A stretch of DNA of 25,755 nt from Chloroflexota bacterium (GTDB lineage: Bacteria; Chloroflexota; UBA6077; FW602-bin22; JAMCYS01). Where the stretch lies: the NCBI GenBank assembly GCA_023473795.1, contig JAMCYS010000152.1, positions 1 through 25,755 of the forward strand, in the 5' to 3' direction. Below, one piece after another: positions 1,171-21,914 of the stretch (its first letter is position 1; each line of letters starts with the position of its first letter). The notes under the pieces are model-generated. The model did not search any database. It saw only the letters and a list, made by a program, of their open reading frames with translations, and was not told the DNA's origin. Position numbers and translations under genes: made by a program.

Positions 1171-2457
1171 TTGCTGTCCGCACAGATCAAGCATGAACTG
1201 AGAGCCATCGTCGGTGAGCGCATGGCGCTCACCGACCCCGCGGATCTGGCCACCTACGCCTACGACGCCACCCATTACACGCACACACCCGACGCAGTCG
1301 TCGTGCCGGCCAGTACCGACGAAGTATCCGCCGTGTTGCGCCTGGCGAGCCGAGAACGACTACCGGTGGTGGCCCGTGGCTCCGGCACCAGCCTCTGCGG
1401 CGGGGCCACCCCAATCAGGGGCGGCGTGGTCCTCTCCACGGCACGCTTGAGGCGCATTCTCGACATCAATGCCGCGAGGTCGTGCGCGACCGCCGAGCCC
1501 GGAGTCAATACGGCCGAGTTCATGCGAGCGGTAGAGACCCGCGGCCTCTTCTACCCGCCGGACCCCTCCAGCCAGAGCGTTTCCACGTTGGGCGGCAACG
1601 TCGCTCAGGGTGCGGGCGGGCCGCGCGGCGCCAAGTACGGCAGCCTGCGGGACTACGTCTTAGGCTGCGACGTCATTCTGGCCGACGGCAGCCGTCTGCG
1701 CACGGGCGCGAACACCGTCAAGAACGCCTCCGGCTACGACCTCACCCGCCTCTTCGTCGGCTCCAGGGGCACCCTGTGTTTCTTCAGCCAACTGCGCTTG
1801 CGCCTCTTGCCTCTGCCCGTGGCTCGCCGGCTTCTGCTATTGCCGTGCGCCGATTTGGCGGCAGCCGCCCGGCTGGCGCTGGCGATCACGGCCGCGGGGC
1901 TGCTGCCCAGCCGGCTGGAAGCGCTGAACGACCAGGCAGCGGCAGCTGCCGGCGCGGGACAGACCAGCGCCATCCTGCTTTGCGAACTGGACGGTTCCGC
2001 CCCCGGCGTCGACCGACAAGCGGCTATTGTCGCCAGGCTGGCAGGGGCGCAGAGCGGCGAAGACCGTGCCGGAGAGGCGGCCGAGGCCATTTGGAATCAA
2101 TTGCAGGGCTGGCCGACGCTGGCGCGCGTCCAGGTGCCACGCGACCGCCTACCGGCCCTGTTGGCCAAAGTCGGGGAACTCGGCGGCACGCTCCGCGGCG
2201 ATTGGGGCGTTGTGGCGGGCGCCGGCACGGGAGGCGTACGCTTGGTGGCGCTGCCGGGCACGAAGGACGCCGGGACCGAGCCGGAGGGGTCGGCTCCAGC
2301 GGCGGAGTTCGCAGCCCTGGCCGGCGAGTTCGGCCTCGTCCGACCCGCCGCTGAGCCGGCCGAGAGGTTGCGGCGCAGCCTCAAGTCGGCTTTCGACCCC
2401 CGGGGCATCCTCAACCCCCTGGTGCCGCTTGCGCCGGACGGGAGCCAGGCGAGATGA
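1171..2457 (+). CDS. FAD-binding oxidoreductase subunit of a glycolate-oxidase-like (GlcD/GlcE family) enzyme. The N-terminal half is GlcD-like (PDPSSQ..GGNVA..GG) and the C-terminal half is GlcE-like, lacking the canonical His-containing catalytic motif.
   Basis: FAD_binding_4-type motifs are present (RGSGTS, YPPDPSSQSVSTLGGNVAQGAGGPRGAKYG, NASGYDLTRLFVGSRG). The C-terminus contains SAFDPRGILNP. The gene starts with TTG, and its stop overlaps the downstream start (ATGA at 2454-2457). Confidence 0.8.
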   Translation: MLSAQIKHELRAIVGERMALTDPADLATYAYDATHYTHTPDAVVVPASTDEVSAVLRLASRERLPVVARGSGTSLCGGATPIRGGVVLSTARLRRILDINAARSCATAEPGVNTAEFMRAVETRGLFYPPDPSSQSVSTLGGNVAQGAGGPRGAKYGSLRDYVLGCDVILADGSRLRTGANTVKNASGYDLTRLFVGSRGTLCFFSQLRLRLLPLPVARRLLLLPCADLAAAARLALAITAAGLLPSRLEALNDQAAAAAGAGQTSAILLCELDGSAPGVDRQAAIVARLAGAQSGEDRAGEAAEAIWNQLQGWPTLARVQVPRDRLPALLAKVGELGGTLRGDWGVVAGAGTGGVRLVALPGTKDAGTEPEGSAPAAEFAALAGEFGLVRPAAEPAERLRRSLKSAFDPRGILNPLVPLAPDGSQAR

Positions 2458-3701
2458 GCGACCACAGGGAGGACGGCGAGGGACTGCAGGCGTACTACGA
2501 CGAGGCGCTGCGCTGCGTGCGCTGTGGGCTTTGCCAGGCGGTGTGCCCGGTGTACGCCGTGGAACAGAGCGAGGCCTCGGTTGCGCGCGGCAAGGTTCAG
2601 CTTGCCCGGGCCCTGCTGGAAGGCAGGCTGGAGCCGTCCCCCGCCGTGCGCGAGCGCCTCTTCCTCTGTCTCAACTGCGGCGCCTGCACGGCCAACTGCC
2701 CCAGCGGCGTCAACGTGGCCAAGTTGATGCTCGCCACACGGGCCCAGTTGCTGCGGGACGTCGGCCGGCCCGCCGTAGAAGGGTTGTTGTTACGTCAAGT
2801 TCTGGCCAATCCCCGCTCGCTGGGTCTGGCCGGGGCGGGGCTCGCCCTCTACCGGCGCAGCGGTTTGCGCTGGCTGGCCCACTACGTGGATGCCCTGGCC
2901 ACCCTACCGGCAGGGCTGGCGAAGGCGGAGGCGATGCTCCCCTCCCGGAGCCGCAGCCGGCCCAGGGTAGGACCGGCGCCAGAGCGCCCTCGCTACCGGG
3001 TCGCTTACTTCGCCGGCTGCGTCACCTCGGTGCTGTACCCGGACCTGGCCCAGTCGGTGGTCGCCGTGCTGCGGCAGGAAGGCTGCCAGGTCGTACTGCC
3101 ACGCGGTCTGGGGTGTTGCGGCACACCGCACCGTGCCTACGGCGACGCAGCGGCGGCCCAGAAGCTGGCAGATCGCAATACGCGGGCCCTGAACGAGGCG
3201 AGCGTCGAGGCTGTCGTCACCGACTGCGCGACCTGCGGGGCCGGCCTCAAGGATTACTCCGGCCTACGAGTGCCCGTCTACGACGTCAGCCAGTTCCTGG
3301 TGGAGGAGGCCGGCCTAGTGGCGCCGCGACGGCCACTGGCAGTGCGCGTCACCTATCACGACCCTTGCCATCTAGCTCGCGGCCAGGGAGTGCGCGAGGC
3401 GCCGCGGCGGCTTCTGCGGGCTATACCGGGGTTGGATCTAGTGGAGATGGCGGAAGCCGACCGCTGCTGCGGCGGCGCCGGCACCTTTGCCCTGACCCAC
3501 CCCGAGACCTCGCTGCGCATACTCGAACGCAAAGTGGCCAACGCCGCCGCCACGGGGGCCGCAATCGTCGCCTCCGGCTGTCCTGCCTGCTTGCTGCAAA
3601 TCGGCTATGGGCTGGGGCGACTGGCGGCCGGCGGTCAGGACGGCCCCCGCGAGGCGCTACATCCAGTCGAACTACTGGCGCAGGCCTATGCTCCGCCCTA
3701 G
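2454..3701 (+). CDS. glcF: Glycolate oxidase iron-sulfur subunit GlcF-like (2x 4Fe-4S ferredoxin motifs plus two CCG cysteine-rich domains)
   Basis: The protein has CVRCGLCQAVCP and CLNCGACTANCP ferredoxin motifs. Downstream are two CCG domains (GCCGTP and DRCCGGAG). It is translationally coupled to the upstream FAD subunit. Confidence 0.85.
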   Translation: MSDHREDGEGLQAYYDEALRCVRCGLCQAVCPVYAVEQSEASVARGKVQLARALLEGRLEPSPAVRERLFLCLNCGACTANCPSGVNVAKLMLATRAQLLRDVGRPAVEGLLLRQVLANPRSLGLAGAGLALYRRSGLRWLAHYVDALATLPAGLAKAEAMLPSRSRSRPRVGPAPERPRYRVAYFAGCVTSVLYPDLAQSVVAVLRQEGCQVVLPRGLGCCGTPHRAYGDAAAAQKLADRNTRALNEASVEAVVTDCATCGAGLKDYSGLRVPVYDVSQFLVEEAGLVAPRRPLAVRVTYHDPCHLARGQGVREAPRRLLRAIPGLDLVEMAEADRCCGGAGTFALTHPETSLRILERKVANAAATGAAIVASGCPACLLQIGYGLGRLAAGGQDGPREALHPVELLAQAYAPP

Positions 3702-4228: not shown

Positions 4229-5395
4229 CTACCAGGCGCGCCGATAGATGTCCAGCACTTCCTTTTCGGTAAGCCTGCGGGGGTTGTTGTCCATCAGGCG
4301 CGCCGTGGCCATGGCGCCGGGCACGAAGGCCTCGACCGCCGAGTCCGGCACGCCCACGTCGCGCATGCGCTGCGGAATGCCCACGTCCTGTGACAACTTG
4401 CGCACCGCCTCCACTGCCTTGTAGGCCGCCTCGCGCGGGCAGAGGCCGTCCAGGCACTCCCCCATCGCCTCGGCGACCTTAGCGAACTTGGGGATGTCGG
4501 CCAGGTAATTGTACTCCAGTACGTAGGGCATCATCATCGCATTGGAAACGCCGTGGGCCACTCGGTACGTGCCGCCCAGCGGGTAGGCCAGGGCGTGCAC
4601 CGAGCCGGCGCTGGCGTTGGCCAGGGCGATGCCGGCGTCGAGGCTGCCCAGGGCCATGTCGTAGCGCGCCTGCAGGTCGCCCCCGCGGCAGACGGCAGTG
4701 CGCAGGCTCTTGGCAATCAGCCGGATGGACTCCAAGGACCACAGCTCGGTCAGCGGCGTGGCCTTGACGGCCGTGTAGGACTCGATGGCGTGCGTGAGGG
4801 CATCCATGCCGGTGGCAGCGGTCACCGAGGGCGGCATGCTCACGGTCAGCAGTGGGTCGACGATGGCCACGTCGGCCAGACAATGCGGGCTCACGGTGCC
4901 GACTTTGAGCTTCTGCTCTACGTCCAGGAAGACCGCGTTGTTAGAGATCTCAGCGCCCGTACCGGCGGTGGTTGCAACCAGTATGTAGGGCAGGCCGCGC
5001 TGGGGCACCTTGTCGATGCCGAAATAGTCGCGGATCGAGCCGCCATTCTTGAGAAGGACGGACACGCCCTTGGTGGTGTCCATGGCGCTGCCGCCGCCGA
5101 CGCCGACGAGCAGGTCGAACCCGCCCTGGCGCACCCACTCCACGCAGCGGTCGAGGCTGGCCACGGTCGGCTCCGGCTCAACCTGGTCGTAGACCTCGGC
5201 TGTCAAACTGGCCTTGGACAGTATGCCCTGTATCTGAGCTGCTAGCCCGGCCTTCGCCACCCCAGGGTCGCAGATGATCACCGGTCGCTTGGCCTGGCAG
5301 CGAACCGCTTCGTCGGCGACCTTGTTGACGGCATCGATGCCAAAGTAGATAGTAGCCGGCAGGCGAAATGGCAGAACCTGAGTCGGTAGCACCAT
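4229..5395 (-). CDS. Iron-containing (group III) alcohol dehydrogenase, e.g. 1,2-/1,3-propanediol or butanol dehydrogenase type
   Basis: The GGGSAMD metal/NAD motif is present, and the His-rich metal site and overall 388-aa length match the Fe-ADH family. Confidence 0.85.
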   Translation of the reverse strand: MVLPTQVLPFRLPATIYFGIDAVNKVADEAVRCQAKRPVIICDPGVAKAGLAAQIQGILSKASLTAEVYDQVEPEPTVASLDRCVEWVRQGGFDLLVGVGGGSAMDTTKGVSVLLKNGGSIRDYFGIDKVPQRGLPYILVATTAGTGAEISNNAVFLDVEQKLKVGTVSPHCLADVAIVDPLLTVSMPPSVTAATGMDALTHAIESYTAVKATPLTELWSLESIRLIAKSLRTAVCRGGDLQARYDMALGSLDAGIALANASAGSVHALAYPLGGTYRVAHGVSNAMMMPYVLEYNYLADIPKFAKVAEAMGECLDGLCPREAAYKAVEAVRKLSQDVGIPQRMRDVGVPDSAVEAFVPGAMATARLMDNNPRRLTEKEVLDIYRRAW

Positions 5396-5592: not shown

Positions 5593-6003
5593 CTAAGCCG
5601 GCTGGCCGGCCAAACGGGCGCGGATGAAGTTGGCGATGTCGGCAGTGGAGCTGCCGGGGCCGAAGGTCGCCGCCACACCCATTTCCTGCAAGGCGCGCAT
5701 GTCCTCGTCGGGTATGATCCCGCCCACGAGGACGACGATGTCCGTCAGCTGCTTCTGCCGCACCAACTCCATTACGCGCGGTACCAGGTCCATATGCGCC
5801 CCGGAGAGGATGCTCAAGCCAATGACGTCGGCGTCTTCCTGCAGCGCCGACTCGACGACCATTTCGGGGGTCTGCCTGAGCCCGGTGTAGATCACCTCCA
5901 TCCCGGCGTCGCGCAGCGCCCGGGCGAGGACCTTGACCCCCCGGTCGTGGCCATCCAGCCCCGGCTTGGCCAGCAGTACCCTGATTTTGCCTCTCTCAAC
6001 CAT
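5593..6003 (-). CDS. icmB: Coenzyme-B12-binding small subunit of a split acyl-CoA mutase (IcmB-like, 136 aa), with DxHxxG motif (DGHDRG)
   Basis: ATG at 6003..6001 is preceded by GAGAGGTG. The ORF-track start at 6012 is GTG without an RBS. Rossmann-like B12-domain motifs are present ([14 protein letters not shown]). Confidence 0.8.
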
Positions 6004-6037
6004 GGTCCACACCTCTCACGTGCTGAGAGCCGAGGCC

Positions 6038-7711
6038 CTAGAGCACCGGCACCTCCATATAGGATCCGTAGACCTCGCGCAGCGCCTGAGTCATCTCGCC
6101 CAGCGTGCAATAAGCACGCACCGCGTCCAGCAGATAGGGCATCACGTTCTCCCCAGCCGCGGCCGCCTTGCTCAGAGCGCGCAGGCAGCGCTCGGCCTGC
6201 GCCCGGTCGCGCCGGCGGCGCACCTCCGCCAGGCGCGCCAGCTGCCGGCGCTCGCCCTCGGGGTCCATGCGCAGCAGAGGCACCTGCACCGGCTCGTCCG
6301 TGGTAAAGCCGTTGACCCCCACGACGATGCGCTCCCCGCTCTCCACTTCTTGCTGGTAGCGGAACGATGCCTCGGCGATCTCCTGTTGCGGGTAGTTGAC
6401 GCCAATCGCCGCCACCATCCCGCCCAGACGGTCGATGCGCTCGATGTACTCACGCGCCTGGCGCTCCAGCTCGTCGGTCAACGCTTCGACGAAGTACGAT
6501 CCCCCCAATGGATCGACGGTGTTCGTCACGCCGCTCTCATTGGCGATGATCTGCTGAGTGCGTAGGGCCACCCGCACGGCGCTTGCCGAGGGCAGGGCCA
6601 GGGCCTCGTCCATGGAATTAGTGTGCAGGGACTGGGTACCGCCCAGCACCGCCGCCAGGGCCTGCAGGGCCACCCGCACCACGTTGTTCTCCGGCTGCTG
6701 GGCCGTCAACGAACAGCCCGCCGTCTGGGTATGGAAGCGCAGCATCCAGGAGCTCGGGTCCTTGGCGCCGAAGCGCTCGCGCATGATCTTGGCCCATAGC
6801 CGCCGGGCCGCCCGGTACTTGGCGATCTCCTCAAAGAAGTCGCTATGGGCGTTGAAGAAGAACGAGAGCCGAGGGGCGAAGTCATCCAGGGCCAGGCCGC
6901 AGTCGAGCGACGCCTGCACGTAGGCGATGCCATCGGCCAGTGTGAAGGCCAGTTCCTGCGCCGCGGTCGAGCCGGCCTCCCGGATGTGATAGCCGCTGAT
7001 CGACACCGTGTTCCATTTGGGCAGGTGGCGGCTGCCAAATTCGATGGTGTCAATCACCAGTTTGAGCGCCGGCTCGGGCGGAAACAGGAACTCCTTCTGC
7101 GCTGTGTACTCTTTCAGGATGTCGTTCTGAAGGGTGCCGCCGAGCTCACCGAACGGGATGCCCTGCTTCTCGGCCGTCACCAGGTACATCGCCCAGATGA
7201 TGGCCGCTGGGCCGTTGATCGTCATCGAGGTCGTGACCTCGTCGAGGCGGATCCCATCGAAGAGGATTTCCATGTCGGCCAGCGAAGAAACGGCCACTCC
7301 GCACTTGCCGAACTCCCCCAGCGCCTGGGGGTCATCGGTGTCGAGCCCATACAGAGTCGGCATATCGAAAGCCACCGACAGGCCGCTCTCGCCGTGAGAC
7401 AGCAGGTATTTGAAGCGCTCGTTCGTTTCTTCAGCGGCGCCAAAGCCGGCGAACAGGCGCATCGTCCAGAGCCGGCCGCGATACATCGTGGGGTGGACGC
7501 CCCGGGTGAAGGGATACTCGCCGGGGAAACCGATTTCCCGCTGATAGGCGGCGACCTCGTCCGCCCCGGGCTCGTAGAGTCTCTGGGTCTGTACCCCGGA
7601 GATGGTGGTGAACTCAGATCGGCGCTCGGGCAGGCGCTCCAGCGACTTCGCCAGAGTAGTCTTCTCCCAGCGCGCGCGGTCGGCGGCGAGCCGTTCGCGG
7701 TCGTCCTGCAT
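6038..7711 (-). CDS. icmA: Acyl-CoA mutase large (catalytic TIM-barrel) subunit with an isobutyryl-CoA-mutase-type active-site signature. In methylmalonyl-CoA mutase the corresponding positions are Tyr89 and Arg207; here they are Phe (TMRLFAGFG) and Gln ([12 protein letters not shown]).
   Basis: Strong similarity to the methylmalonyl-CoA mutase alpha catalytic domain throughout ([33 protein letters not shown]). Specificity residues were read from the alignment-equivalent motifs. There is no C-terminal B12 domain, so this is a split enzyme. Confidence 0.8.
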
Positions 7712-7807: not shown

Positions 7808-8230
7808 CTAGGTCTCAGGCTCGTGCCCCTTCTCCGCCAGCTCGACGAGCACGCCCCCGGTGGCTTTAGGGTGCAGAAAACCGACCCGCGAGCCGTGCGC
7901 GCCCGGCGCCGCCGCTCCCGAGCCGATCACCGCGCCCCGGGCCGATAGTTCGCCGAGCAGCTCGTCCAAACCTTCCACTTCCAGGCAGATGTGGTGTATG
8001 CCTTCACCACGCTTGTCGAGGTATTTGCCAACGGGGGTGTCCGGGCCGGTCGGCTCGAGCAATTCCAGCGTGGCCTCGCCCAGGGGCAGGAAGGCGACCT
8101 TCACCCCCTGGGCGGGCACGGTTTCGTAGTGATCGGCCGCGAGTCCTAGCGCCTCCTCGTAGAAGCGCACCGCTGCCTCCGCATCCCTGACGGCGATGCC
8201 GACGTGGTCGATCTTCTTGACACGTGGCAT
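7808..8230 (-). CDS. mce: Methylmalonyl-CoA epimerase (VOC/glyoxalase-fold)
   Basis: IDHVGIAVRD...HHICLEV...GGVLVEL metal-ligand pattern and 140-aa size. It is in the same operon context as a mutase. Confidence 0.8.
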   Translation of the reverse strand: MPRVKKIDHVGIAVRDAEAAVRFYEEALGLAADHYETVPAQGVKVAFLPLGEATLELLEPTGPDTPVGKYLDKRGEGIHHICLEVEGLDELLGELSARGAVIGSGAAAPGAHGSRVGFLHPKATGGVLVELAEKGHEPET

Positions 8231-8239
8231 TGGCGGAAC

Positions 8240-9757
8240 CTAGCCCTCGTGCCCGTTGCCGGCAGCCGGGGCCTTGGCAGTTGTGTCTTCCGCCTGCAAG
8301 TCGGCTAACGCCGGTATCTTGCGCAGAACGTCCTGCAACTTGAGCCCGGTGAGCGCCTCGATAACCGCCGGCATCTGGGCCATGATCTCGGTTATGTCCC
8401 GCGTAATCTTAGACGCTCCAGCGCCGTGACCGTCAGATCCGCCAATCATGACGATGCGGTCCGTCTTGCTGAGTGGTTCGGCGACGGCCCTGGCCAGCTC
8501 CGGCAGGCGCTCGACGATCATCTGGATTATGGCCGCCTCGTTGTACTCGTGCCAAGCCTCCGCCTTGCTCGACATAGCCGTCGCCTCGGCCGCGCCACGG
8601 GCCTTGGTCACGTCGGCGGCGGTCAGGCCGCGCGCGCGCTCGATGTCGACCTGCGCCAGGCCCTGCGCCCGCTCGGCGTCGGCCTGGCCCTGGCCCATCA
8701 GCCTTGCCGCCTCGGACTTGCCAGTCGCCTCGGCCCGCAGCTTGTACTGCTCGGCCTCGGCCAGCGTCTGGATACGAGTGCGCTCCGCCTCGGCCGGTTT
8801 CTGGACGTTGGCGACCAGTTCCCGCTCCCGACGGGCAACTTCCTTCTCCTGAACCAGGGTCTCCTGTTCCTTCTGGACTATCTGGACCTTCACCTCTTCG
8901 GCCTTGACGAGCTGCTCCGTCTTGTACTTCTGCAGGTCGTAGGCGAGGTCGGCCTCAGCCTTCTGCTGGTTGACTAGCATGTTGTACTGAGCGACCTTGA
9001 CGTTGTAGTCACGCTGCGACTCAGCAATTTTGGTCTGGGCCTCGATCTCGCCGATCTTGCCCAGCTGTTCGGCCTGCGCCCGCTTGATCTGGGTCTCCCG
9101 AGCGGCCTCGGCCTCGGCGATGGCCGCGTCGCGGCGCACCTCGGCGATGCGCGGCTTGCCCAGGGCCTCCAGGTAGCCCTGCTTGTCGTGCACGTCCTTG
9201 ATGGTGAAACTGATGACGGTGAAGCCCATGTTGCTGAAGTCGGTCGAGGATACTTCCTGTACCCGCTGGGCGAAGGCCTCGCGATTACGATAGACTTCCT
9301 CGACGGTCATCGTACCCATAATGGCCCGCAAGTGGCCCTCGAGGGTTTGCTTGACGACCTCTTTGCGCTCCTCGACGTTCTTGGAGAGGAACTGCTCTGC
9401 CGCGGTCGCGATCGAAACCAGGTCGCTTTGCACTTTGATCTGGGCCACGCCTTCCACGATGATGGGCACACCTTGCGAGGTGTAGACGTCCGGCGTGCCC
9501 ACGTCGATGGTCATCGTCTCCATCGACAGGGTCTTGAACGACTCGACGACCGGCATGACTATCGTGCCGCCGCCGCGCACGATGCGAAAGCCGACGTCCC
9601 GCGCCTGCCCACTCTCGTCGCGCAGCTTGCCGCCCCGACCATAGATGATCAGCGCCTCGTTGGGACCGACCTTACGATAGCGCGAGGCTGCCAACGCTAT
9701 GAGAAGAAAGATGCCTAGGACGATGCCTGCCACTAGCAGCGTGCTGGTGAAATCCAC
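8240..9757 (-). CDS. floT: Flotillin-like SPFH/band-7 protein (FloT/YuaG type) with N-terminal membrane anchor and Ala/Glu-rich coiled coil
   Basis: Close resemblance to B. subtilis YuaG along the SPFH domain (IVRGGGT, IATAAEQFL, GHLRAIMGTMTVEEVYRNRE, LGKPRIAEV). GTG start at 9757. The upstream nfeD partner is present. Confidence 0.9.
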   Translation of the reverse strand: MDFTSTLLVAGIVLGIFLLIALAASRYRKVGPNEALIIYGRGGKLRDESGQARDVGFRIVRGGGTIVMPVVESFKTLSMETMTIDVGTPDVYTSQGVPIIVEGVAQIKVQSDLVSIATAAEQFLSKNVEERKEVVKQTLEGHLRAIMGTMTVEEVYRNREAFAQRVQEVSSTDFSNMGFTVISFTIKDVHDKQGYLEALGKPRIAEVRRDAAIAEAEAARETQIKRAQAEQLGKIGEIEAQTKIAESQRDYNVKVAQYNMLVNQQKAEADLAYDLQKYKTEQLVKAEEVKVQIVQKEQETLVQEKEVARRERELVANVQKPAEAERTRIQTLAEAEQYKLRAEATGKSEAARLMGQGQADAERAQGLAQVDIERARGLTAADVTKARGAAEATAMSSKAEAWHEYNEAAIIQMIVERLPELARAVAEPLSKTDRIVMIGGSDGHGAGASKITRDITEIMAQMPAVIEALTGLKLQDVLRKIPALADLQAEDTTAKAPAAGNGHEG

Positions 9758-9822
9758 TTAGTTCACCCTCCCTTTGCGACACTCGAATGCCCGCCCGAAC
9801 GACGGCTACGAACCCGCCAACT

Positions 9823-10449
9823 CTACCCCTCGTCAGAGGCCGAACCGAGGGCCTCGTCCTCCATTGACACTACCTCGGCCACACCCTTGTGTAAGCGTAC
9901 GATCGCCACCCTCGTGCCACTGGCCAAGGGCACGCCGCTGGCAGACCGCGCCGGCAATTGCATGCGGCTGCCACGGGCGGAGAAGACGATCTCGCCCAGC
10001 CCCTCGGCCGGAATGCTGACCCGCACCTTGGCCAGAGCCTGGGCCACCTCTCTCATGTCCGGCGAGCTACTGCCCTGGGCCCTCACTAGCGGCCGCCACA
10101 CCGCTAGGAAGAATGCCCCGGCAACCAGTACCGCCCCGACCGTGGCGAGAAGGAGCGAAAGCCAATCGGGCAGGCCAATATACCTGTAGGTCAACAGGCC
10201 AATGCCCCCCACGGCCAGAGAGAAAGCCGCTATGGTAAGAGAGTTGACCGGGGATACATGGTGGGCGCCGACGTCGTGGCCAGCGTCAAGCTCGTGCCCG
10301 CCGCCCAAGTCGTGCGACAAGTCCACGTCGTGGCCGCCGGCTATGTCGTGGCCGCCCAGACCACCGGCGAGCAAGCCGAACACGCCGTAGCCGAGCCCAA
10401 AGAGGAACGCCACCCAATAGAACAGTTCCAGCCCGTTTAGCCCACCCAT
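9823..10449 (-). CDS. nfeD: NfeD/YuaF-like membrane protein (3 TM segments plus C-terminal OB-fold beta-barrel), partner of flotillin. It contains an unusual His/Asp-rich GHD repeat loop.
   Basis: TM helices plus C-terminal VRVSIPAEGLGEIVFSARGSRMQLPARS...VAIVRLHKGVAEVV OB-like domain. Gene order nfeD-floT matches yuaF-yuaG. Strong RBS GGGAGGAGGG before ATG 10449. Confidence 0.75.
   Translation of the reverse strand: MGGLNGLELFYWVAFLFGLGYGVFGLLAGGLGGHDIAGGHDVDLSHDLGGGHELDAGHDVGAHHVSPVNSLTIAAFSLAVGGIGLLTYRYIGLPDWLSLLLATVGAVLVAGAFFLAVWRPLVRAQGSSSPDMREVAQALAKVRVSIPAEGLGEIVFSARGSRMQLPARSASGVPLASGTRVAIVRLHKGVAEVVSMEDEALGSASDEG
10255..10356 (-). repeat. In-frame nucleotide tandem repeats GTCGTG(G/C)CC(GCC) encoding GHD/HD units (GGHDIAGGHDVDLSHDLGGGHELDAGHDVGAHH) inside nfeD
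   Basis: gtcgtggcc/gtcgtgccc/gtcgtgcga motifs recur about 6 times at roughly 18-21 nt spacing on the plus strand. Their reverse complement encodes Gly-His-Asp. Confidence 0.6.
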
Positions 10450-10472: not shown

Positions 10473-11227
10473 CTAGCCGCGTTTGCCCTCGCGGTACTCC
10501 TGAGCGTAGCGCCGGTTGTTGCTGACCACCTGAGCGGCGAAGTCCCGCAGGTGATTCGTCACCGGCGCCAGCGACCGAGCCCGCTCCGGCGTGTCCACGA
10601 TCGCCCCTGCCGGCACCAGGCGCCCATCCGGTATCTCTACGTCGGAGATGAACGCGCCGTGCCAGACTACGCAGCCGCGTCCGATCGTGCTGTTCACCAC
10701 CATCGTCCGAAAGCCGACGAAAGCACCGTCGCCGATAGCCACCGGGCCGTGCACGAACGCTTGGTGGGCCAAGGATACGTTCTTCCCGACCCAGACGGCA
10801 TACTGCTGGCCGCCCACGACAACCGAGCGCCCTTCCATGGCGTGGACGACGACCCCGTCCTGCACGTTACTACCATCGCCAATGGCTATCGGCGCCCCGC
10901 TGTCACCCCTGATTGAGGACCCCGGGGCGACGAAGACCTCGGCCCCCAATTGTACGTCGCCCACCACGCTCGCGGCAGGACTGATGAAGGCGCCCCGACC
11001 GAGGCGAACGGTGCGACCCACCTCTGCCGCCGGCATGGCGGCTGCCGCGGGTGGCGCGGGCCGGGCCGGAGGAGCAGCGACCGGCGTCTGAGCCGCAAAC
11101 GCCTCGCTCCCTGGGGCATCCGGCTCGGTTAGAGAACGCCCCAGGTTACCCCCGCCAGCCGGCAGGTCTGAGCCCGGCATGGGCATGTAGCCGATGGGCT
11201 GCATGCCCCCTTTGGGTTGGCCCTCGC

Positions 11228-11231
<4 letters not shown>
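10473..11231 (-). CDS. Gamma-class carbonic anhydrase family (left-handed beta-helix, hexapeptide repeat) protein with about 95-aa Pro/Ala-rich low-complexity N-terminal extension; all three Cam-type zinc-ligand His positions conserved
   Basis: [11 protein letters not shown] and [12 protein letters not shown] match the Cam motifs (H81, H117, H122 equivalents). The start ATG 11231..11229 overlaps the upstream mutase stop (ATGA). The ORF-track upstream extension has no RBS and is rejected. Confidence 0.75.
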
Positions 11232-12919
<1,688 letters not shown>

Positions 12920-12930
12920 CCAATCCTCGC

Positions 12931-13461
12931 CTATGAAACGATCGCCAGCACATCCCCGGCGTTCACCGTGGAGCCGGCGCTCACCGGCAAGGAGGTCACC
13001 CGGCCGGCGGCGGTGCTCTTGATCTCGTTTTCCATCTTCATGGCCTCGAGGACCACCAGCCCGGCGCCGTAGGCCACGTTGTCGCCCACTTTGACCTGCA
13101 CGCGCAGGATCTTGCCGGGCATCGGCGCCCGCATCACCGTGCCCGAGGCCGCGGGAGCCGTCGGCGCGGTGGCAGGAGCGGGTGACGTCCGCGGCCCCAC
13201 GGCTGCCGGGGCAGGGCGTGGGGCAGCAGGGGCGAGCGCCGGCGCGGGGCGGGTCGCCGAGTCCAGCCGAACCGCGTAGGTCTTGCCGTCCAGCGTCACC
13301 TGGTCGCCCTTCAGCTCGACCTGGAGCGTCTTGCCGCCCACCTCGACCGTGGCCGAGTTGCCGCGGCGGCGGGCGCTAGCGGGAACCGGTTTGCCGTCGA
13401 CAGTCACCTCGCCCGGTTTGACCGTGACCTCGTAGTCTTTGCCGTCGATCGTTATCTTCAC
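12931..13461 (-). CDS. Biotin carboxyl carrier subunit, transcarboxylase 1.3S / decarboxylase gamma type (N-terminal [12 protein letters not shown] domain, Ala/Pro linker, C-terminal biotinyl domain with EAMKM)
   Basis: AMKM biotinylation motif. The N-terminus resembles the P. shermanii 1.3S and GcdC N-termini. GTG start at 13461. Confidence 0.85.
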
Positions 13462-13476
13462 TGTCGCAACCTCACC

Positions 13477-14961
13477 CTACCTCATCAGTCCCAGACGGCC
13501 GGATAGCTTCCAGCCAGAGAGTCCGGCCAGGGCCTCGGGCACGCGCTCCCGCTGCGCCGGGGCGAGAAACGCCGCGGCAATGGCAGCGACCGTCTCCGCG
13601 TCCAGCTTGGGCTCGGGCTCAACCTCGCCCGCCCGCCGTTTGAAGAACTCCAGGGCCACCTGGGGGAAGATCGCGTAGGAGATCACGTCCTCGTCGCTCT
13701 GCGCATAGGGCTTGGACCCCTCCACGGCCTTGTCCCACTCGGGCTCCAACAGGTCGGCGGGGCGGACGTCGATCGTCTCCTCGCCGTCGATGGTCTTCTC
13801 CTTGATGGCAGGGTCGACCGGAATCGCTGGCCGGCCGTAGAACCCCTTCACGTACAGCTTGACCTCTTTGGGCACCATCTTGTAGCGCTCGCCCAGGAGG
13901 ACGTTCAGCACCGCCTGCGTGCCCACGATCTGACTGGAGGGGGTGACCAAAGGCGGGTAGCCAAGGTCCTGGCGCACCCGCGGCACCTCGGCCAGCACTT
14001 CCTTCAGGCGGTCTTCCGCCTTCTGCTCACGCAGCTGGGAGACTAGGTTAGAGATCATCCCGCCCGGAATCTGGAAGGTGAGCACGTTCGTATCGACGGG
14101 CGCCATACCCATCTCGAACTTGCCGTATTCCTTGCGTACCTTGCCGAAGTACTCCGCGATCTCCGACAGCAAATCGAGGTCGAGGCCCGTGTCGCGAGGC
14201 GTGCCCTTGAGCGCGGCCACAATGCTCTCCGTGGGCGGCTGACCAGAGCCCATCGAGATGCTGGAGATGGAGGTATCGACGACGTCGATGCCCGCTTCCG
14301 CCGCCTTGAGGTAGGCCATCGACGCCATACCGCTGGTGTAGTGGCAGTGCAACTGCACCGGCAGGCCGACCTTCTCCTTCAGCTGCTTGGTAAGATCGTA
14401 TGACTCGTAGGGGTCGATGAGACCGGCCATGTCCTTGATGCAGATCGAATCGGCGCCCATGTCGCGCAGCGTCTTGCCCATCTCCACAAACGTGTCGATG
14501 TTGTGGTAGGGGCTGCGCGTGTAGCAGATCGTCGCCTGCACGTGGCCGCCGACATGCTTAGTCACTTCCATCGCATAGCGCATGTTGCGCACGTCGTTCA
14601 AGGCGTCGAAGATGCGGAAGATGTCCATGCCATTTTCTTTGGCCTTGACGACGAAATGCTCCACGATGTCGTCGGCGTAGTTGCGGTAGCCGACGATGTT
14701 TTGGCCGCGCAACAGCATCTGCAGCTTAGTGTTCTTGAACGCCCCGCGCAGTTGGCGCAGGCGCTCCCAGGGGTCTTCGTTCAAGAAGCGCATGCAACTG
14801 TCGAAAGTCGCGCCGCCCCAGACCTCGAGGGAGTGGTAACCCACCCTGTCCAGCTTCTCGGCAATGGGCAGCATGTGCTCGATGCGCATGCGCGTCGCCA
14901 GCAGCGATTGGTGCGCGTCGCGCAGGATTGTGTCGGTGATGCCGAGCGGGTTCTTCTCCAC
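13477..14961 (-). CDS. Transcarboxylase 5S subunit / oxaloacetate-decarboxylase-alpha-type carboxyltransferase (pyruvate carboxyltransferase TIM barrel, no fused biotinyl domain)
   Basis: ILRDAHQSL, IKDMAG (carbamyl-Lys motif) and LHCHYTSG metal-site motifs. The 494-aa length matches the 5S subunit. Confidence 0.9.
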   Translation of the reverse strand: MEKNPLGITDTILRDAHQSLLATRMRIEHMLPIAEKLDRVGYHSLEVWGGATFDSCMRFLNEDPWERLRQLRGAFKNTKLQMLLRGQNIVGYRNYADDIVEHFVVKAKENGMDIFRIFDALNDVRNMRYAMEVTKHVGGHVQATICYTRSPYHNIDTFVEMGKTLRDMGADSICIKDMAGLIDPYESYDLTKQLKEKVGLPVQLHCHYTSGMASMAYLKAAEAGIDVVDTSISSISMGSGQPPTESIVAALKGTPRDTGLDLDLLSEIAEYFGKVRKEYGKFEMGMAPVDTNVLTFQIPGGMISNLVSQLREQKAEDRLKEVLAEVPRVRQDLGYPPLVTPSSQIVGTQAVLNVLLGERYKMVPKEVKLYVKGFYGRPAIPVDPAIKEKTIDGEETIDVRPADLLEPEWDKAVEGSKPYAQSDEDVISYAIFPQVALEFFKRRAGEVEPEPKLDAETVAAIAAAFLAPAQRERVPEALAGLSGWKLSGRLGLMR

Positions 14962-14979: not shown

Positions 14980-16539
14980 CTACAGCGGTATATTGCCGTG
15001 CTTCTTCGGCGGCAGGGTATCGCGTTTGTCCTTGAGCATCTCCAGGGCGGCGATCAGCTTGGGCCTGGTGTAGCGAGGCTGGATCACATCGTCCAACAAG
15101 CCGTGGGCCGCGGCGACGTACGGGTTGGCGAACTTGTCGCGGTACTGCTGCACCTTCTCCTGCAAAGTAGCCTCAGGGTCGGGCGAGGACTCGATCTCCC
15201 GCCGGAAGAGGATGTTGGCCGCCCCGTCGGGGCCCATCACCGCGATTTCGGCCGTGGGCCAGGCGAGGTTGATATCGCCGCGCAGGGCCTTGCTACTCAT
15301 GACGATGTAGGCACCGCCGTAGGCCTTGCGCGTGATCAGCGAAATCTTGGGCACGGTCGCCTCGCTGTAAGCGTAAATCATTTTGGCCCCATGACGAATG
15401 ATACCGCCCTGCTCCTGGTCGAGACCAGGCATGAAGCCCGGCACGTCGGCGATGGTGACGAGCGGCACGTTGAAGCAGTCGCAGAAGCGAACGAAGCGCG
15501 CTGCCTTGTCGGAGGCGTTGATATCGATGACCCCCGCTAGCACCTTGGGCTGCTGCGCCACTACGCCCACCGGCCGCCCGCCGAGACGCGCGAAGCCGAC
15601 GATCATGTTCTGGGCGAACTCCTTGTGGACCTCGAACAGGTCCCCGTCGTCCACGATGCGACCGATCACTTCCAGCATATCGTAGGGTTGGTTAGGGGAA
15701 TCCGGGATCAGCACGTCCAGCTCGGGGTCCGTGCGATCCGCCGGATCGAGCGAGACTCCCAGGGGCGGGTCGTCCATATTGTTGGAGGGCAGGAAGCCGA
15801 GCAGGCGGCGGATGTCCTGCAGGCAGGTCTGCTCGTCCGGCTCGGCGAAATGGGCGACGCCGCTGATGCCGGCGTGCGTCTGTGCCCCGCCCAGCTGATC
15901 GAAGCTGACGTCCTCATGGGTGACCGCCTTGACCACGGCCGGGCCGGTGATAAACATGTGGCTAGTGCCATTGACCATAAACACGAAGTCCGTCAGGGCC
16001 GGCGAGTAGCAGGCGCCGCCGGCCGAGGGGCCGAGGATGGCCGAGACCTGGGGAATGACGCCCGAGGCCAGCGTGTTGCGCAGGAAGATCTCGGCGTAGC
16101 CGGCAAGGCTGAGCACGCCCTCCTGGATGCGCGCGCCGCCGGAGTCGTTCAGCCCGATCAACGGCGCCCCGTTCTTCATCGACAGGTCCATCACCTTGCA
16201 GATCTTGTTGGCATGCACCTCGGACAATGAGCCGCCGAAGACGGTGAAGTCCTGCGAAAATACGTACACCAGTCTGCCGTCCACCTTGCCAAAGCCCGTG
16301 ACCACGCTGTCGCCTAGGTACTGCTGCTCGGCCAGCCCGAAGTCGGTGCAGCGATGCAGGACAAACTGATCCAGCTCGCTGAACGAACCGGGATCGAGCA
16401 AGGCGTCGATCCGTTCGCGGGCGGTCAGCTTGCCTCTCTTGTGCTGCTGCTCGACGCGCTGGGGGCCGCCACCCTGCTCCGCCTGCCGCTGCAGTTCCCG
16501 CAGCTCGGAGATGCGATTGGCCTCAACCATACTGTTCAC
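14980..16539 (-). CDS. Methylmalonyl-CoA carboxyltransferase 12S subunit (propionyl-CoA carboxylase beta family)
   Basis: High similarity to the P. shermanii 12S subunit, including the C-terminal KKHGNIPL. Carboxyltransferase motifs are present ([22 protein letters not shown]). The annotated start is GTG at 16539. ATG at 16530 (MVEANRI) has a better-spaced GAGGTGA RBS and may be the true start. Confidence 0.9.
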
Positions 16540-16563: not shown

Positions 16564-17433
16564 CTAGGTGCCATACTCGTAGAAGCCGCGGCCGGACTTG
16601 CGTCCCAGGTGTCCCGCCTCGACCATCCGGTGTAGCAGAGGGCAGGGGCGGTACTTGGAATCGCCGAAGCCCCGGTGCAGCACCTCCATCACCTGTAAAC
16701 ACACATCCAGACCAATCAGATCGGCCAACTGTAGCGGGCCAAGCGGATGATTCATCCCCAGGTGCATGACGGTGTCGATGGCCTCCCGCTGGGCAACGCC
16801 CTCCATGAGGCAGTAGATGGCTTCGTTGATCATCGGCATGAGCACCCGGTTGGACACGAAGCCTGGATAGTCGTTCACCGCCACCGGCGTCTTGCCCAGG
16901 CGCTCCGCCAGCTGCTGTACCAACCCCATGGTGGCGTCGCTCGTCAGTTCGCCGCGCACCACTTCCACTAGCGCCATCACGGGCACCGGGTTGAAGAAGT
17001 GCATGCCGACCACCTGACCCGGCCGCCGCGTTCCGGCCCCCAAGGTAGTGACGGAGATCGAGGAGGTGTTGGAGGCCAGGACGGCCTCATGGCGGCACAA
17101 GGCGTCCAGGCGCCGGAAGACGTCAATCTTGACCGGCAACTGCTCCACCGCCGCCTCGACCACCAGGTCGCAGCGGGACAGGTCCTCCAAAGACAGAGAA
17201 GGGGCAATGCCGGCCAGCGCCGCCTCGCGTGCCGCCGGTTCGAGGCGCCCCTTGTCCACGGCGCGGTCGAGGTTGCGCCGGATGGTGGCCAGGCCGCGGT
17301 CGAGGGCGGCCCGGTCCACCTCGACCAGGGTCACGGCGAAGCCGGCACCGGCGAACACCTGGGCAATGCCGTTGCCCATAGTACCTGCCCCAACCACCCC
17401 AACCTTCCGAATCTCCTCAGCTTCCATTGCCAT
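16564..17433 (-). CDS. hbd: 3-hydroxybutyryl-CoA / 3-hydroxyacyl-CoA dehydrogenase (NAD-binding)
   Basis: KVGVVGAGTMGNGIAQVFA Rossmann motif and typical Hbd length. The start is probably ATG 17433 or 17427 (AGGAAAGG RBS). The GTG at 17463 in the ORF track is less likely. Confidence 0.85.
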   Translation of the reverse strand: MAMEAEEIRKVGVVGAGTMGNGIAQVFAGAGFAVTLVEVDRAALDRGLATIRRNLDRAVDKGRLEPAAREAALAGIAPSLSLEDLSRCDLVVEAAVEQLPVKIDVFRRLDALCRHEAVLASNTSSISVTTLGAGTRRPGQVVGMHFFNPVPVMALVEVVRGELTSDATMGLVQQLAERLGKTPVAVNDYPGFVSNRVLMPMINEAIYCLMEGVAQREAIDTVMHLGMNHPLGPLQLADLIGLDVCLQVMEVLHRGFGDSKYRPCPLLHRMVEAGHLGRKSGRGFYEYGT

Positions 17434-17483
17434 CCTTTCCTGGTCCAACGGGAGACGAACCACGGATCAACGCGGATCCTGGA

Positions 17484-17611: not shown

Positions 17612-18802
17612 CTAGGCTAACTCGACGCTCAGGGCGACGGCCTCGCCCCCGCCGAGGCAGGCCACGGCCAGGCCGCGTTCGCCGCCTCGCTGGCGCAAGG
17701 CATAGATCAGTGTCGTCAAGATGCGCGCGCCGCTGGCGCCGATAGGATGGCCCAAGGCCACCGCGCCGCCGTGGACGTTTACCTTCTGCCAATCCCAGCC
17801 CAAGTCCTTGCCGTTGGCCAGCACCTGGGAGGCGAAGGCTTCGTTGATCTCGATGAGGTCGAAATCGTTCAGACCCAGACCGGTCTGGGACAGCAGTTTG
17901 CGAATGGCCAGCGGCGGGGCAGCGAAGAGCAGCAGCGGCTCCAGGGCAGCCGTGGCATAGCCCGTGACGCGCGCCAGCGCGGGCAGGCCGAGCTCCCGGC
18001 CGCGCCCGCCCTCGACTACCACTAGGGCGGCGGCGCCGTCGCTCAGGCCGGGGGCGTTGCCGGCCGTCACCGTGCCGCCCTCCGGCTGGAAGGCCGGCTG
18101 CAGACGCGCGAGCGCCTCCAGGCTCGTGTCGGGGCGGGGCGTCTCGTCGGCGGCGACGACCACGCTGCCCTTCTTCTGCGGCACCTCGACCGGAACGATC
18201 TCCGCCGCGAACCGGCCCGACGACGCCGCGGCGACGGCCTTGCGGTGGCTCGCCAGGGCGAACTCGTCCTGTTCGCGACGGCTAATACCATAGAGCTTGG
18301 CGATGTGTTCGGCGGAGTTGCCCATGTGGTGGTGCTCGAATGAGCACCAGAGGCCATCGTGTACCGTGGCGTCTACGATCTCGCCGTTGCCCAGACGGTA
18401 GCCGGTGCGGGCACGGGGCAGTAGGTAGGGGCCGTTGCTCATGCTCTCCATGCCCCCAGCCACGTAGATGGAGCCGTCTCCGGCCTTGATGGCTTGCGCC
18501 GCCAGCATGACCGCCTTCAGGCCCGAACCGCAGACCTTGTTGACGGTGACGGCCGGCACGCTCACGGGCACACCAGCCCGGACCGCGGCCTGGCGAGCAG
18601 GGGCCATGCCCACGCCCGCCTGGACGACGTTGCCCATTATCACTTCGTCCACGGCGGCGGGGTCGACACCCGCCCGGCGGATAGATTCACGAATGGCGAC
18701 GGCGCCCAACTCGGGCGCCGTTAGTGGTTGGAGGGCACCGAGGAAACGGCCCGTGGGAATGCGCGCGGCACTAGCGATCACAACCTTAGGGGAGTCCGCC
18801 AT
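17612..18802 (-). CDS. Acetyl-CoA C-acetyltransferase (thiolase II)
   Basis: VNKVCGSGLKAV (nucleophilic Cys), GHPIGASGARIL (His) and C-terminal Cys in ACLGGGEAVA. ATG at 18802 with GGGAGGAAGG RBS. The 25-aa ORF-track extension is rejected. Confidence 0.9.
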   Translation of the reverse strand: MADSPKVVIASAARIPTGRFLGALQPLTAPELGAVAIRESIRRAGVDPAAVDEVIMGNVVQAGVGMAPARQAAVRAGVPVSVPAVTVNKVCGSGLKAVMLAAQAIKAGDGSIYVAGGMESMSNGPYLLPRARTGYRLGNGEIVDATVHDGLWCSFEHHHMGNSAEHIAKLYGISRREQDEFALASHRKAVAAASSGRFAAEIVPVEVPQKKGSVVVAADETPRPDTSLEALARLQPAFQPEGGTVTAGNAPGLSDGAAALVVVEGGRGRELGLPALARVTGYATAALEPLLLFAAPPLAIRKLLSQTGLGLNDFDLIEINEAFASQVLANGKDLGWDWQKVNVHGGAVALGHPIGASGARILTTLIYALRQRGGERGLAVACLGGGEAVALSVELA

Positions 18803-18867
18803 TGCCTTCCTCCCTTGACGCAACTCCGCGCCTCGCCGTGCAGCGTCTGGCCCTGGGTATCCCGCAC

Positions 18868-18876
18868 ATAATAGCA
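18868..18876 (-). promoter_or_regulatory. Extended -10-like element TGCTATTAT (minus strand) about 66 nt upstream of the thiolase ATG
   Basis: Plus-strand ataatagca at 18868-18876. There is no clear -35, consistent with an extended -10 promoter. Inference only. Confidence 0.3.
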
Positions 18877-18963
18877 CAACGCAACCTGCCCCGCCAGAAC
18901 GAAGATCCCCTTCCCGCTAGGCAGGAAGGGGGTTGTCAGTAACCAGCAGATGTTGGTCTGTTG

Positions 18964-21130: not shown

Positions 21131-21212
21131 CGATCTCTCCTCCATATCTGCTGCCGAAGCGAACCGACCCTCCCCGGGTCCAGTCGCCCAGTGATGCCCG
21201 ACGGCGCCAGAG

Positions 21213-21914
21213 TCAGTCGCCGAACGTGCCGCCGGCGCTGGCCAGCGCGGCCTCCAGGTCTTGCCTGGTGTGCTGGTGATGCCAGCGGAGACGGCGCTCG
21301 GCCTCAGCCGCATCGCCCGCGAGGAAGGCGGCGAGAATCTCCTTGTGCTCCAGGTGGCCGGCAAGCGGTCTGCCGGGCACGTCGAAGGCCCGCCAGCGGA
21401 TCATCAGGAACTGGTCGTGCATGTTCTCGAAAACGCGCAGCAAGCGGCGGTTGCCCGAGGCCTGCACGAGCAGGCGGTGCAACTCCATGTCCAGGCGGCT
21501 GAAGCCCCGCTGATCGCGAGCCGCCACAAGCGGTTCCGCCTCCGCCACCAGCTCCGCGAGGCGACGGTCCAGCCCCGGCGTGCGCCTCTGTAAGGCCCGC
21601 ACGATAGCGTGCGCCTCCAGGACCTCACGGACCTCCAACACCTCGCGAATGTCCTCGGCGGTAATGGAGACGACGACGGCGCCCCGCCGGGGCAGGTACT
21701 GCACCAGGCCCTCCCGTTCCAGGCGCGAGATGGCCTCACGCACCGGCGTGTTGGAGACGCCAATCTGTTCGGCCAGGGCAGCCTCGGTGAGGCGGGAGCC
21801 GGCAGCCAGGGTATTCTCGATGATGGCGGTCTTGAGGGTGGCGTAGACCGAGTCGGTCAGGTTGAGATGGCGCTCGACCCGGGGTAGACTCAACAGCTCC
21901 ACTGGCACCTCCAA
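21213..21914 (-). CDS. GntR-family transcriptional regulator with FadR-type C-terminal (FCD) ligand-binding domain
   Basis: N-terminal wHTH (SRLTEAALAEQIGVSNTPVREAISRLEREGLV) plus C-terminal all-helical FCD-like region. The start may be GTG 21908 (better-spaced GGAAG RBS) rather than TTG 21914. Confidence 0.85.
   Translation of the reverse strand: MEVPVELLSLPRVERHLNLTDSVYATLKTAIIENTLAAGSRLTEAALAEQIGVSNTPVREAISRLEREGLVQYLPRRGAVVVSITAEDIREVLEVREVLEAHAIVRALQRRTPGLDRRLAELVAEAEPLVAARDQRGFSRLDMELHRLLVQASGNRRLLRVFENMHDQFLMIRWRAFDVPGRPLAGHLEHKEILAAFLAGDAAEAERRLRWHHQHTRQDLEAALASAGGTFGD

Follow-up and report, generated by a model that had tools for sequence, protein, structure and literature searches.

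The stretch of DNA analysed here, the window, comprises 25,755 nucleotides (nt) from a Chloroflexota bacterium (contig JAMCYS010000152.1 of assembly GCA_023473795.1) and encodes on its minus strand an acyl-coenzyme A (CoA) mutase divided over two adjacent genes. The large subunit (7711..6038, minus strand, 557 amino acids (aa), ATG start) is the substrate-binding TIM-barrel component and the small subunit (6003..5593, minus strand, 136 aa) is the B12-binding component. An open reading frame of 139 aa for the small subunit can be traced from GTG 6012 (6012..5593); a GAGAGG ribosome-binding site precedes ATG 6003, the likely start, and the 136-aa gene call is also present in locus L001. The large subunit matches TIGR00641 over residues 34-553 (7.6e-233, 773.5 bits, cutoff 303.8), PF01642 is precomputed for all of its homologues, and the small subunit matches TIGR00640 at 1e-50. 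An initial annotation, made by reading the letters of the window, had proposed that these genes encode a split mutase carrying the Phe/Gln active-site pair of isobutyryl-CoA mutase (ICM). The motifs on which it relied are present as quoted, namely a 10-residue motif around Phe87 and a 14-residue motif around Gln205 of the large subunit (24 residues together) and the DxHxxG (base-off/His-on) motif of the 136-aa small subunit, which reads GLDGHDRG and thus contains DGHDRG. Using tblastn, this small subunit was found to be the only B12-binding domain in the window. Searches by tblastn and against protein families found no MeaB or other G-protein gene and no adenosyltransferase gene in the window, a scan of the window against Rfam returned no cobalamin riboswitch and no other family, and a promoter and terminator scan around the mutase genes gave nothing above chance. 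An identical 7.4-kb piece occurs in ENA assembly ERZ27236928, and the nearest named homologues are proteins from metagenome-assembled genomes (MAGs) of Chloroflexota, Anaerolineae and Dehalococcoidales.

In methylmalonyl-CoA mutase (MCM), Arg207 binds the carboxylate of the substrate. Alignment of the large subunit to characterised mutases (phmmer against PDB sequences) placed Phe87 in the column of Propionibacterium shermanii MutB residue 89 and Gln205 in the column of Arg207, so that the homology of these positions to MutB Tyr89 and Arg207, as initially claimed, is borne out. The first column is Tyr in human and Mycobacterium tuberculosis MCM, Ile90 in HcmA and Phe in PDB entry 5req, the Y89F mutant of MutB; the second is Arg207 in MCMs and Gln in HcmA. 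The same pair can be located in the fused enzyme IcmF. The IcmF encoded on an Ideonella plasmid (L142) aligns end to end with Cupriavidus metallidurans IcmF (PDB 4xc6), and through it Phe87 and Gln205 land on 4xc6 chain positions 618 and 762 (BLASTP), which are native Phe598 and Gln742 once the 20-residue tag is subtracted. The Phe/Gln pair defines ICM, being Phe80/Gln198 in IcmA and Phe598/Gln742 in IcmF. Work by Ratnatilleke (1999), Cracan (2010) and Jost (2015) is reported to have recognised these residues as ICM-defining, and the rule is applied here together with the IcmF alignment. At a third informative position, that of HcmA Asp117, the large subunit has Ala114, and Ala is also found there in MCM and IcmF; the equivalents of Tyr243, His244 and Gln197 are kept as Y241, H242 and Q195.

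Judged by these positions, the large subunit does not carry the MCM signature, since Phe87 and Gln205 replace Tyr89 and Arg207, and its score against the MCM equivalog NF006944 (624 bits) lies under the cutoff of 876. Nor does it carry the signature of the HCM-type enzymes (Ile90 and Asp117), having Phe and Ala where the three HCM-type references have Ile and Asp. Xaut_5043, taken here as the putative pivalyl-CoA mutase (PCM) reference, has Leu/Leu/Asn at the three positions and is 38% identical to the large subunit with its Phe/Ala/Gln. The protein is therefore set apart from both the HCM (Ile/Asp) and the putative PCM (Leu/Asn) signatures.

Comparison with known systems follows the same lines. 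IcmA/IcmB of Streptomyces cinnamonensis (EC 5.4.99.13) is likewise split into a large subunit of ~560 aa and a small subunit of ~136 aa with DxHxxG, and IcmA Phe80 and Gln198 presumably occupy the MutB Tyr89 and Arg207 positions as their counterparts in the window do. It comes, however, from another phylum, and we take icmA and icmB to be unlinked in Streptomyces, whereas the two genes of the window are adjacent and lie within an MCM/transcarboxylase operon. IcmF (C. metallidurans, 4xc6; Ideonella, L142) shares the aligned Phe/Gln pair but is 39% identical to the large subunit and fuses B12, MeaB-like G and substrate domains in a chain of ~1090 aa, in contrast to the split genes found here; its R-M-F-A-G motif is that of most Chloroflexota homologues, compared with RLF in the window. 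HcmA/HcmB (PDB 4r3u; M. petroleiphilum, Xaut_5021) is split, has Gln at the Arg207 position and belongs to a neighbouring clade, and HcmA is the best match to the large subunit among solved structures (7e-169); at 47-51% identity, it differs by Ile90/Asp117 in place of Phe/Ala. Split MCMs, including those of Ilyobacter, Brevibacillus and Acetoanaerobium and a paralogue within the window, are of the same length, 58-62% identical, and share the operon partners epimerase, carboxyltransferase and MeaB, but have Tyr/Arg with coupled changes at positions 96, 120, 137, 206 and 207 (numbering of the large subunit) and form a separate clade. A side observation concerns the Brevibacillus laterosporus plasmid (L011), where the gene directly after the Tyr/Arg split MCM large subunit, annotated as mce (6643-7485, 281 aa), encodes a fusion in which a B12-binding small subunit (DGHDRG) makes up the N-terminal part and a methylmalonyl-CoA epimerase the C-terminal part.

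The Phe/Gln signature is neither local nor rare. A collection of 5.8 billion proteins was searched, and in the best 120 homologues of the large subunit, all from Chloroflexota and 68-99% identical, Phe was present in 120 of 120 and Gln could be read in 119, the motif search having missed one. Scanning species genomes with a degenerate DNA pattern for WTMRxFAGFG returned matches in at least 120 genomes; those listed belong to Actinomycetota, Acidobacteriota, Gemmatimonadota, Planctomycetota, Myxococcota, Nitrospira, Thermus, Chloroflexota, haloarchaea, Bathyarchaeota and Asgard archaea, and the Phe/Ala/Gln clade is represented in twelve or more phyla of bacteria and archaea. No Streptomyces is found among the genome matches listed, and the Streptomyces plasmid homologues that were read (S. 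parvulus, S. canus and Streptomyces sp. N50) are of the Tyr/Arg type. Haloarchaeal megaplasmids, including L014, encode Phe/Gln large subunits (WTMRQFAGFG, KEYIAQKEW) that are annotated as methylmalonyl-CoA mutase.

Pattern-matched proteins from the listed genomes were combined with reference mutases in an alignment of 113 large subunits. The three-position signature is Phe/Ala/Gln in 93 sequences, Tyr/Ala/Arg in 15, Ile/Asp/Gln in three (the HCM-type references), Leu/Leu/Asn in one (Xaut_5043) and Phe/Ala/Lys in one, so that, of 94 Phe-type proteins, 93 pair Phe with Gln. Phe/Gln and Tyr/Arg proteins are told apart best by columns 87, 96, 120, 137, 205, 206 and 207 of the large subunit, which has the state of the Phe/Gln clade at every one of them. 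It also keeps each of the 85 columns (85/85) with a conservation of 97% or more in the superfamily and shows no deviation from the consensus that the Phe/Gln clade reaches at the 90% level. By these comparisons the protein is a canonical member of the clade and presumably active. A change in specificity through the Leu preceding Phe87 (RLF) was weighed and dismissed: this position is variable across the clade (Gln in 64 sequences, Met in 27, Leu in two) and Met occurs there in IcmF and in some Tyr/Arg MCMs as well, which makes the RLF of the window uninformative.

Neighbor-joining trees place the Phe/Gln sequences, the IcmF substrate domain and the HCMs in one clade. All 15 Tyr/Arg proteins sampled fall outside it, among them the paralogue in the window and the MCMs of Ilyobacter, Brevibacillus and Acetoanaerobium. 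With the long-branch sequences IcmF and Xaut_5043 removed, the split between Phe/Gln plus HCM and Tyr/Arg has a bootstrap value of 73% (146/200); with both included, the value for the Phe/Gln plus HCM clade is 30%. The IcmF substrate domain nests within the Phe/Gln clade. Support is 100% for the grouping of the large subunit with its two closest orthologues and 83% for that with the Chloroflexota R-M-F group. It is 62-65% identical to Phe/Gln proteins of other phyla and 61-62% identical to its Tyr/Arg neighbor. An origin as a recent duplicate of this neighbor was rejected, because despite the 62% identity between the two the protein groups with the Phe/Gln clade and is equally close to Phe/Gln proteins of other phyla. 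The haloarchaeal Phe/Gln proteins adjoin the HCM group and not the bacterial Phe/Gln proteins, a placement with weak support.

Because the invariant columns are kept and the Phe/Gln clade stands apart from split Tyr/Arg MCMs, ICM-type specificity is the best reading of the large subunit, and we consider that the pair probably represents a split isobutyryl-CoA mutase-type acyl-CoA mutase made up of a large and an adenosylcobalamin (AdoCbl)-binding small subunit. The pair agrees with ICMs in each sequence feature compared, and its grouping with a characterised ICM is supported in part.

The methylmalonyl-CoA pathway context emphasized in the initial annotation is real, as epimerase and 12S/5S/1.3S genes are present; what was overlooked is a second mutase large subunit that explains it (12919..11228, minus strand, 563 aa, TIGR00641 3e-239). 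This paralogue has the Tyr/Ala/Arg signature of MCM, with the motif RQYAGY and an 11-residue motif around the second position, is 62% identical to the Phe/Gln protein (BLASTP) and groups with the split Tyr/Arg MCMs. It has no adjacent small subunit. The resulting order of MCM-type large subunit, epimerase, ICM-type large subunit and one small subunit is conserved in five of six distinct Chloroflexota contexts (68-83% identity) and additionally in L029. Loci L018 and L019 (83% and 78% identity to the Phe/Gln large subunit) have the gene order of the window. At ~70% identity, L020/L021 encodes 12S, 5S, biotin carboxyl carrier protein (BCCP), Tyr/Arg large subunit, epimerase, adenosyltransferase, Phe/Gln large subunit, small subunit and MeaB, and L143 and L145 (~70%) encode thiolase, propionyl-CoA carboxylase (carboxyltransferase, biotin carboxylase and BCCP), Tyr/Arg large subunit, epimerase, adenosyltransferase, Phe/Gln large subunit, small subunit and MeaB. 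L029 (68%, BLASTP) has the same core, and in L144 (~70%) the Phe/Gln large subunit stands alone. Across the Chloroflexota loci compared, the Tyr/Arg large subunit is thus consistently without a small subunit of its own, and the one small subunit gene comes after the Phe/Gln gene.

The neighborhood was also inspected outside Chloroflexota, in 120 8-kb blocks around Phe-type large subunits from among the matches listed. Here, 45 of 120 have their own small subunit, 16 of 120 have MeaB and 16 of 120 have thiolase and/or 3-hydroxybutyryl-CoA dehydrogenase (Hbd); downstream of Ideonella icmF lie Hbd and an acyl-CoA dehydrogenase. The small subunit of the window has a median identity of 58% to Phe/Gln-linked small subunits of other phyla, 53-55% to Tyr/Arg-linked ones and 47-50% to HcmB, and by this measure is marginally closer to the Phe/Gln-linked group.

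In many lineages the same operon carries one adenosyltransferase and one MeaB, and the conserved layout suggests that the two large subunits may share a B12 module. Possibly, though we put this forward only tentatively, the MCM-type and ICM-type large subunits of Chloroflexota are co-transcribed with one small subunit so that a single cofactor-loading module serves two mutases, or so that the two chains form a mixed complex containing active sites of different kinds. The small subunit would then serve the MCM-type chain too. A related proposal is that the Phe/Gln chain is a hetero-oligomer partner of the Tyr/Arg chain, comparable to MutA in MutA/MutB, which shares the small subunit and has either a structural or regulatory role or contributes a different active site. 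The presence of one small and two large subunits in the window, the recurrence of this stoichiometry in the Chloroflexota contexts listed above including L029, the fact that the Tyr/Arg chain never has its own small subunit at these loci and the 62% identity between the two chains all speak in favor of such a partnership. The Phe/Gln chain nevertheless keeps all 85 superfamily-invariant columns, unlike a degenerate MutA-type subunit, and MutA matches it at only 1e-28 to 1e-34. Many other phyla encode a Phe/Gln large subunit with its own small subunit and with no Tyr/Arg partner nearby, and the slight preference of the window small subunit for Phe/Gln-linked relatives (median 58% against 53-55%) points in the same direction. 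This arrangement is therefore unlikely.

The two mutase genes are part of a long co-directional array on the minus strand that runs from a thiolase at its head through the small subunit and is followed, after a gap of 197 nt, by an iron-containing alcohol dehydrogenase (Fe-ADH). The array begins with an acetyl-CoA acetyltransferase/thiolase (18877..17612; TIGR01930, 457 bits) and Hbd (17463..16564; NF004474, 432 bits, above cutoff). These are followed by carboxyltransferase 12S (16539..14980), carboxyltransferase 5S (14961..13477) and biotin carrier 1.3S (13461..12931), all assigned by NCBIfam, which form a transcarboxylase-like set, given that no biotin carboxylase is present. Downstream of the MCM-type large subunit lies a hexapeptide-repeat, gamma-carbonic-anhydrase-like protein (11231..10473; NCBIfam and Pfam) whose ATG and the stop codon of the MCM-type gene overlap (ATGA). 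It is kept in L018 and L019, the HCM clusters of both M. petroleiphilum (L004) and X. autotrophicus (L005) contain genes of the same family, and it may be a recurrent companion of acyl-CoA mutase/carboxylase operons. Further on, ahead of the epimerase, the array is interrupted by an NfeD-like protein (10449..9823) and a FloT-like flotillin of 505 aa (9757..8240). This flotillin/NfeD insertion (8240-10449) is kept in L018 and L019, relatives with 78-83% identity, and absent from L020, L143 and L145. Methylmalonyl-CoA epimerase (8230..7808; TIGR03081, 2.1e-41, above cutoff) lies directly upstream of the Phe/Gln large subunit, a position kept in L018, L019, L020, L143, L145 and L029. The Fe-ADH (5395..4229, minus strand) has NCBIfam matches that all lie below equivalog cutoffs; it is present in L001, L018 and L019 and absent from L020, L143 and L145.

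Outside this array, the plus strand carries at 1171-3701 a pair consisting of a GlcD-like FAD oxidase and an Fe-S/CCG-domain protein (LdhH- or GlcF-like), which suggests lactate or glycolate oxidation. The same pair is found near the mutase array in L019. The minus strand at 19163-21364 encodes a 733-aa protein in which PF01663 (type I phosphodiesterase/nucleotide pyrophosphatase) covers the N-terminal part, the rest being without a family match.

With regard to mechanism, the exchange of the carboxylate-binding Arg and the Tyr of MCM for Gln and Phe means that the pocket should accept an uncharged alkyl substrate. The enzyme would thus interconvert butyryl-CoA and isobutyryl-CoA by an AdoCbl-dependent radical 1,2-shift, with side activity on C5 acyl-CoAs being possible. 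The most economical physiological model would have the operon act as a short- and branched-chain acyl-CoA module with two branches. The Tyr/Arg enzyme, epimerase and transcarboxylase could link propionyl-CoA, methylmalonyl-CoA and succinyl-CoA, and the Phe/Gln enzyme, Hbd and thiolase could connect isobutyryl-CoA reversibly to butyryl-CoA, 3-hydroxybutyryl-CoA, acetoacetyl-CoA and acetyl-CoA. Isobutyryl-CoA would be derived from valine or isobutyrate and fed into the Hbd/thiolase branch. Flux might serve branched-chain acyl-CoA catabolism or, alternatively, the formation of isobutyrate and propionate; the sequence itself gives no direction. The link to C4 metabolism, for which the initial annotation had invoked thiolase, Hbd and Fe-ADH together, is supported by the recurrence of thiolase and Hbd next to Phe-type large subunits in other phyla and by Hbd and acyl-CoA dehydrogenase next to IcmF. 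The Fe-ADH part of that argument is weak: linkage of this gene is confined to the closest relatives and its matches stay below equivalog cutoffs, so it gives weak support for any alcohol end product.

It should be noted that several observations weigh against assigning the pair to isobutyryl-CoA. The immediate neighbors, with the epimerase directly upstream and the MCM pathway genes around it, are those of an MCM operon, and family searches found no crotonase, butyryl-CoA dehydrogenase or CoA-transferase in the window. NCBIfam offers only a generic subfamily model for the large subunit: the score with the IcmF equivalog NF045497 is 388.6 bits, where its cutoff is 1500, its match covers the C-terminal part only and the genes are split, hence they do not qualify as IcmF. 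Bootstrap support for the Phe/Gln plus HCM clade is 30% once IcmF and Xaut_5043 are included, and the characterised ICM in the trees is IcmF. The activity proposed for this Chloroflexota group is a prediction from sequence comparison. Finally, ICM-type enzymes are promiscuous, as IcmF also converts isovaleryl-CoA/pivalyl-CoA (PMC10481361), so the physiological substrate could be another alkyl-CoA.

This last point corresponds to a distinct alternative in which an ICM-type pocket would act on another uncharged pair, either isovaleryl-CoA/pivalyl-CoA or 2-methylbutyryl-CoA/valeryl-CoA. The conversion of the former pair by IcmF with the same Phe/Gln residues (PMC10481361, PMC9974510) agrees with it, and the operon context suits branched-chain acyl-CoA metabolism in general. 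We nevertheless regard it as improbable. The recurrent neighbors thiolase and Hbd are C4 enzymes. In addition, the candidate PCM Xaut_5043 has Leu/Leu/Asn and not Phe/Ala/Gln. Compared with this alternative, the isobutyryl-CoA/butyryl-CoA assignment remains the preferred one.

An HCM- or RCM-like hydroxyacyl-CoA mutase would instead turn 3-hydroxybutyryl-CoA supplied by Hbd into 2-hydroxyisobutyryl-CoA. HcmA is the best PDB match, Hbd lies in the same array, HCMs nest beside the Phe/Gln clade and the gamma-carbonic-anhydrase-like gene also occurs in the M. petroleiphilum and X. autotrophicus HCM clusters; yet the three HCM-type references have Ile (89/90) and Asp117 where the protein of the window has Phe and Ala, and the window is without the 2-hydroxyisobutyrate-CoA ligase found in HCM clusters, which makes this activity very unlikely. 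That the pair is a plain MCM, in line with the source name methylmalonyl-CoA mutase (family protein) and the epimerase directly upstream, is hardly credible considering that the carboxylate-binding Arg207 and Tyr89 are both replaced, that 15 of 15 sampled Tyr/Arg proteins lie outside the Phe/Gln clade and that the operon already has a genuine large subunit of the Tyr/Arg type.

The large subunit is an ordinary member of a widespread and generically annotated clade, and it is set apart from routine cases solely by the conserved operon with two large subunits and one small subunit. For syntrophs, Syntrophothermus lipocalidus among them, clusters encoding isobutyryl-CoA mutase have been proposed (PMC5017805), and the misannotation of ICM-type genes as MCM has already been documented (PMC7764203). 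Our literature search found no paper linking ICM with Anaerolineae or Dehalococcoidia. The distribution of split Phe/Gln mutases is much wider than the handful of cases from Streptomyces and syntrophs that are generally quoted would suggest, and the whole clade is publicly labelled as methylmalonyl-CoA mutase (family protein). Reading these proteins as ICM-type would alter metabolic reconstructions of Anaerolineae and Dehalococcoidia MAGs and would add a reversible link between valine or isobutyrate and butyrate in organisms that digesters and sediments harbour in large numbers. The layout of two large subunits with a single small one points to a possible common module of B12 subunit and chaperone, which can be tested, and offers a concrete handle on whether mutases share B12-binding subunits and chaperones.

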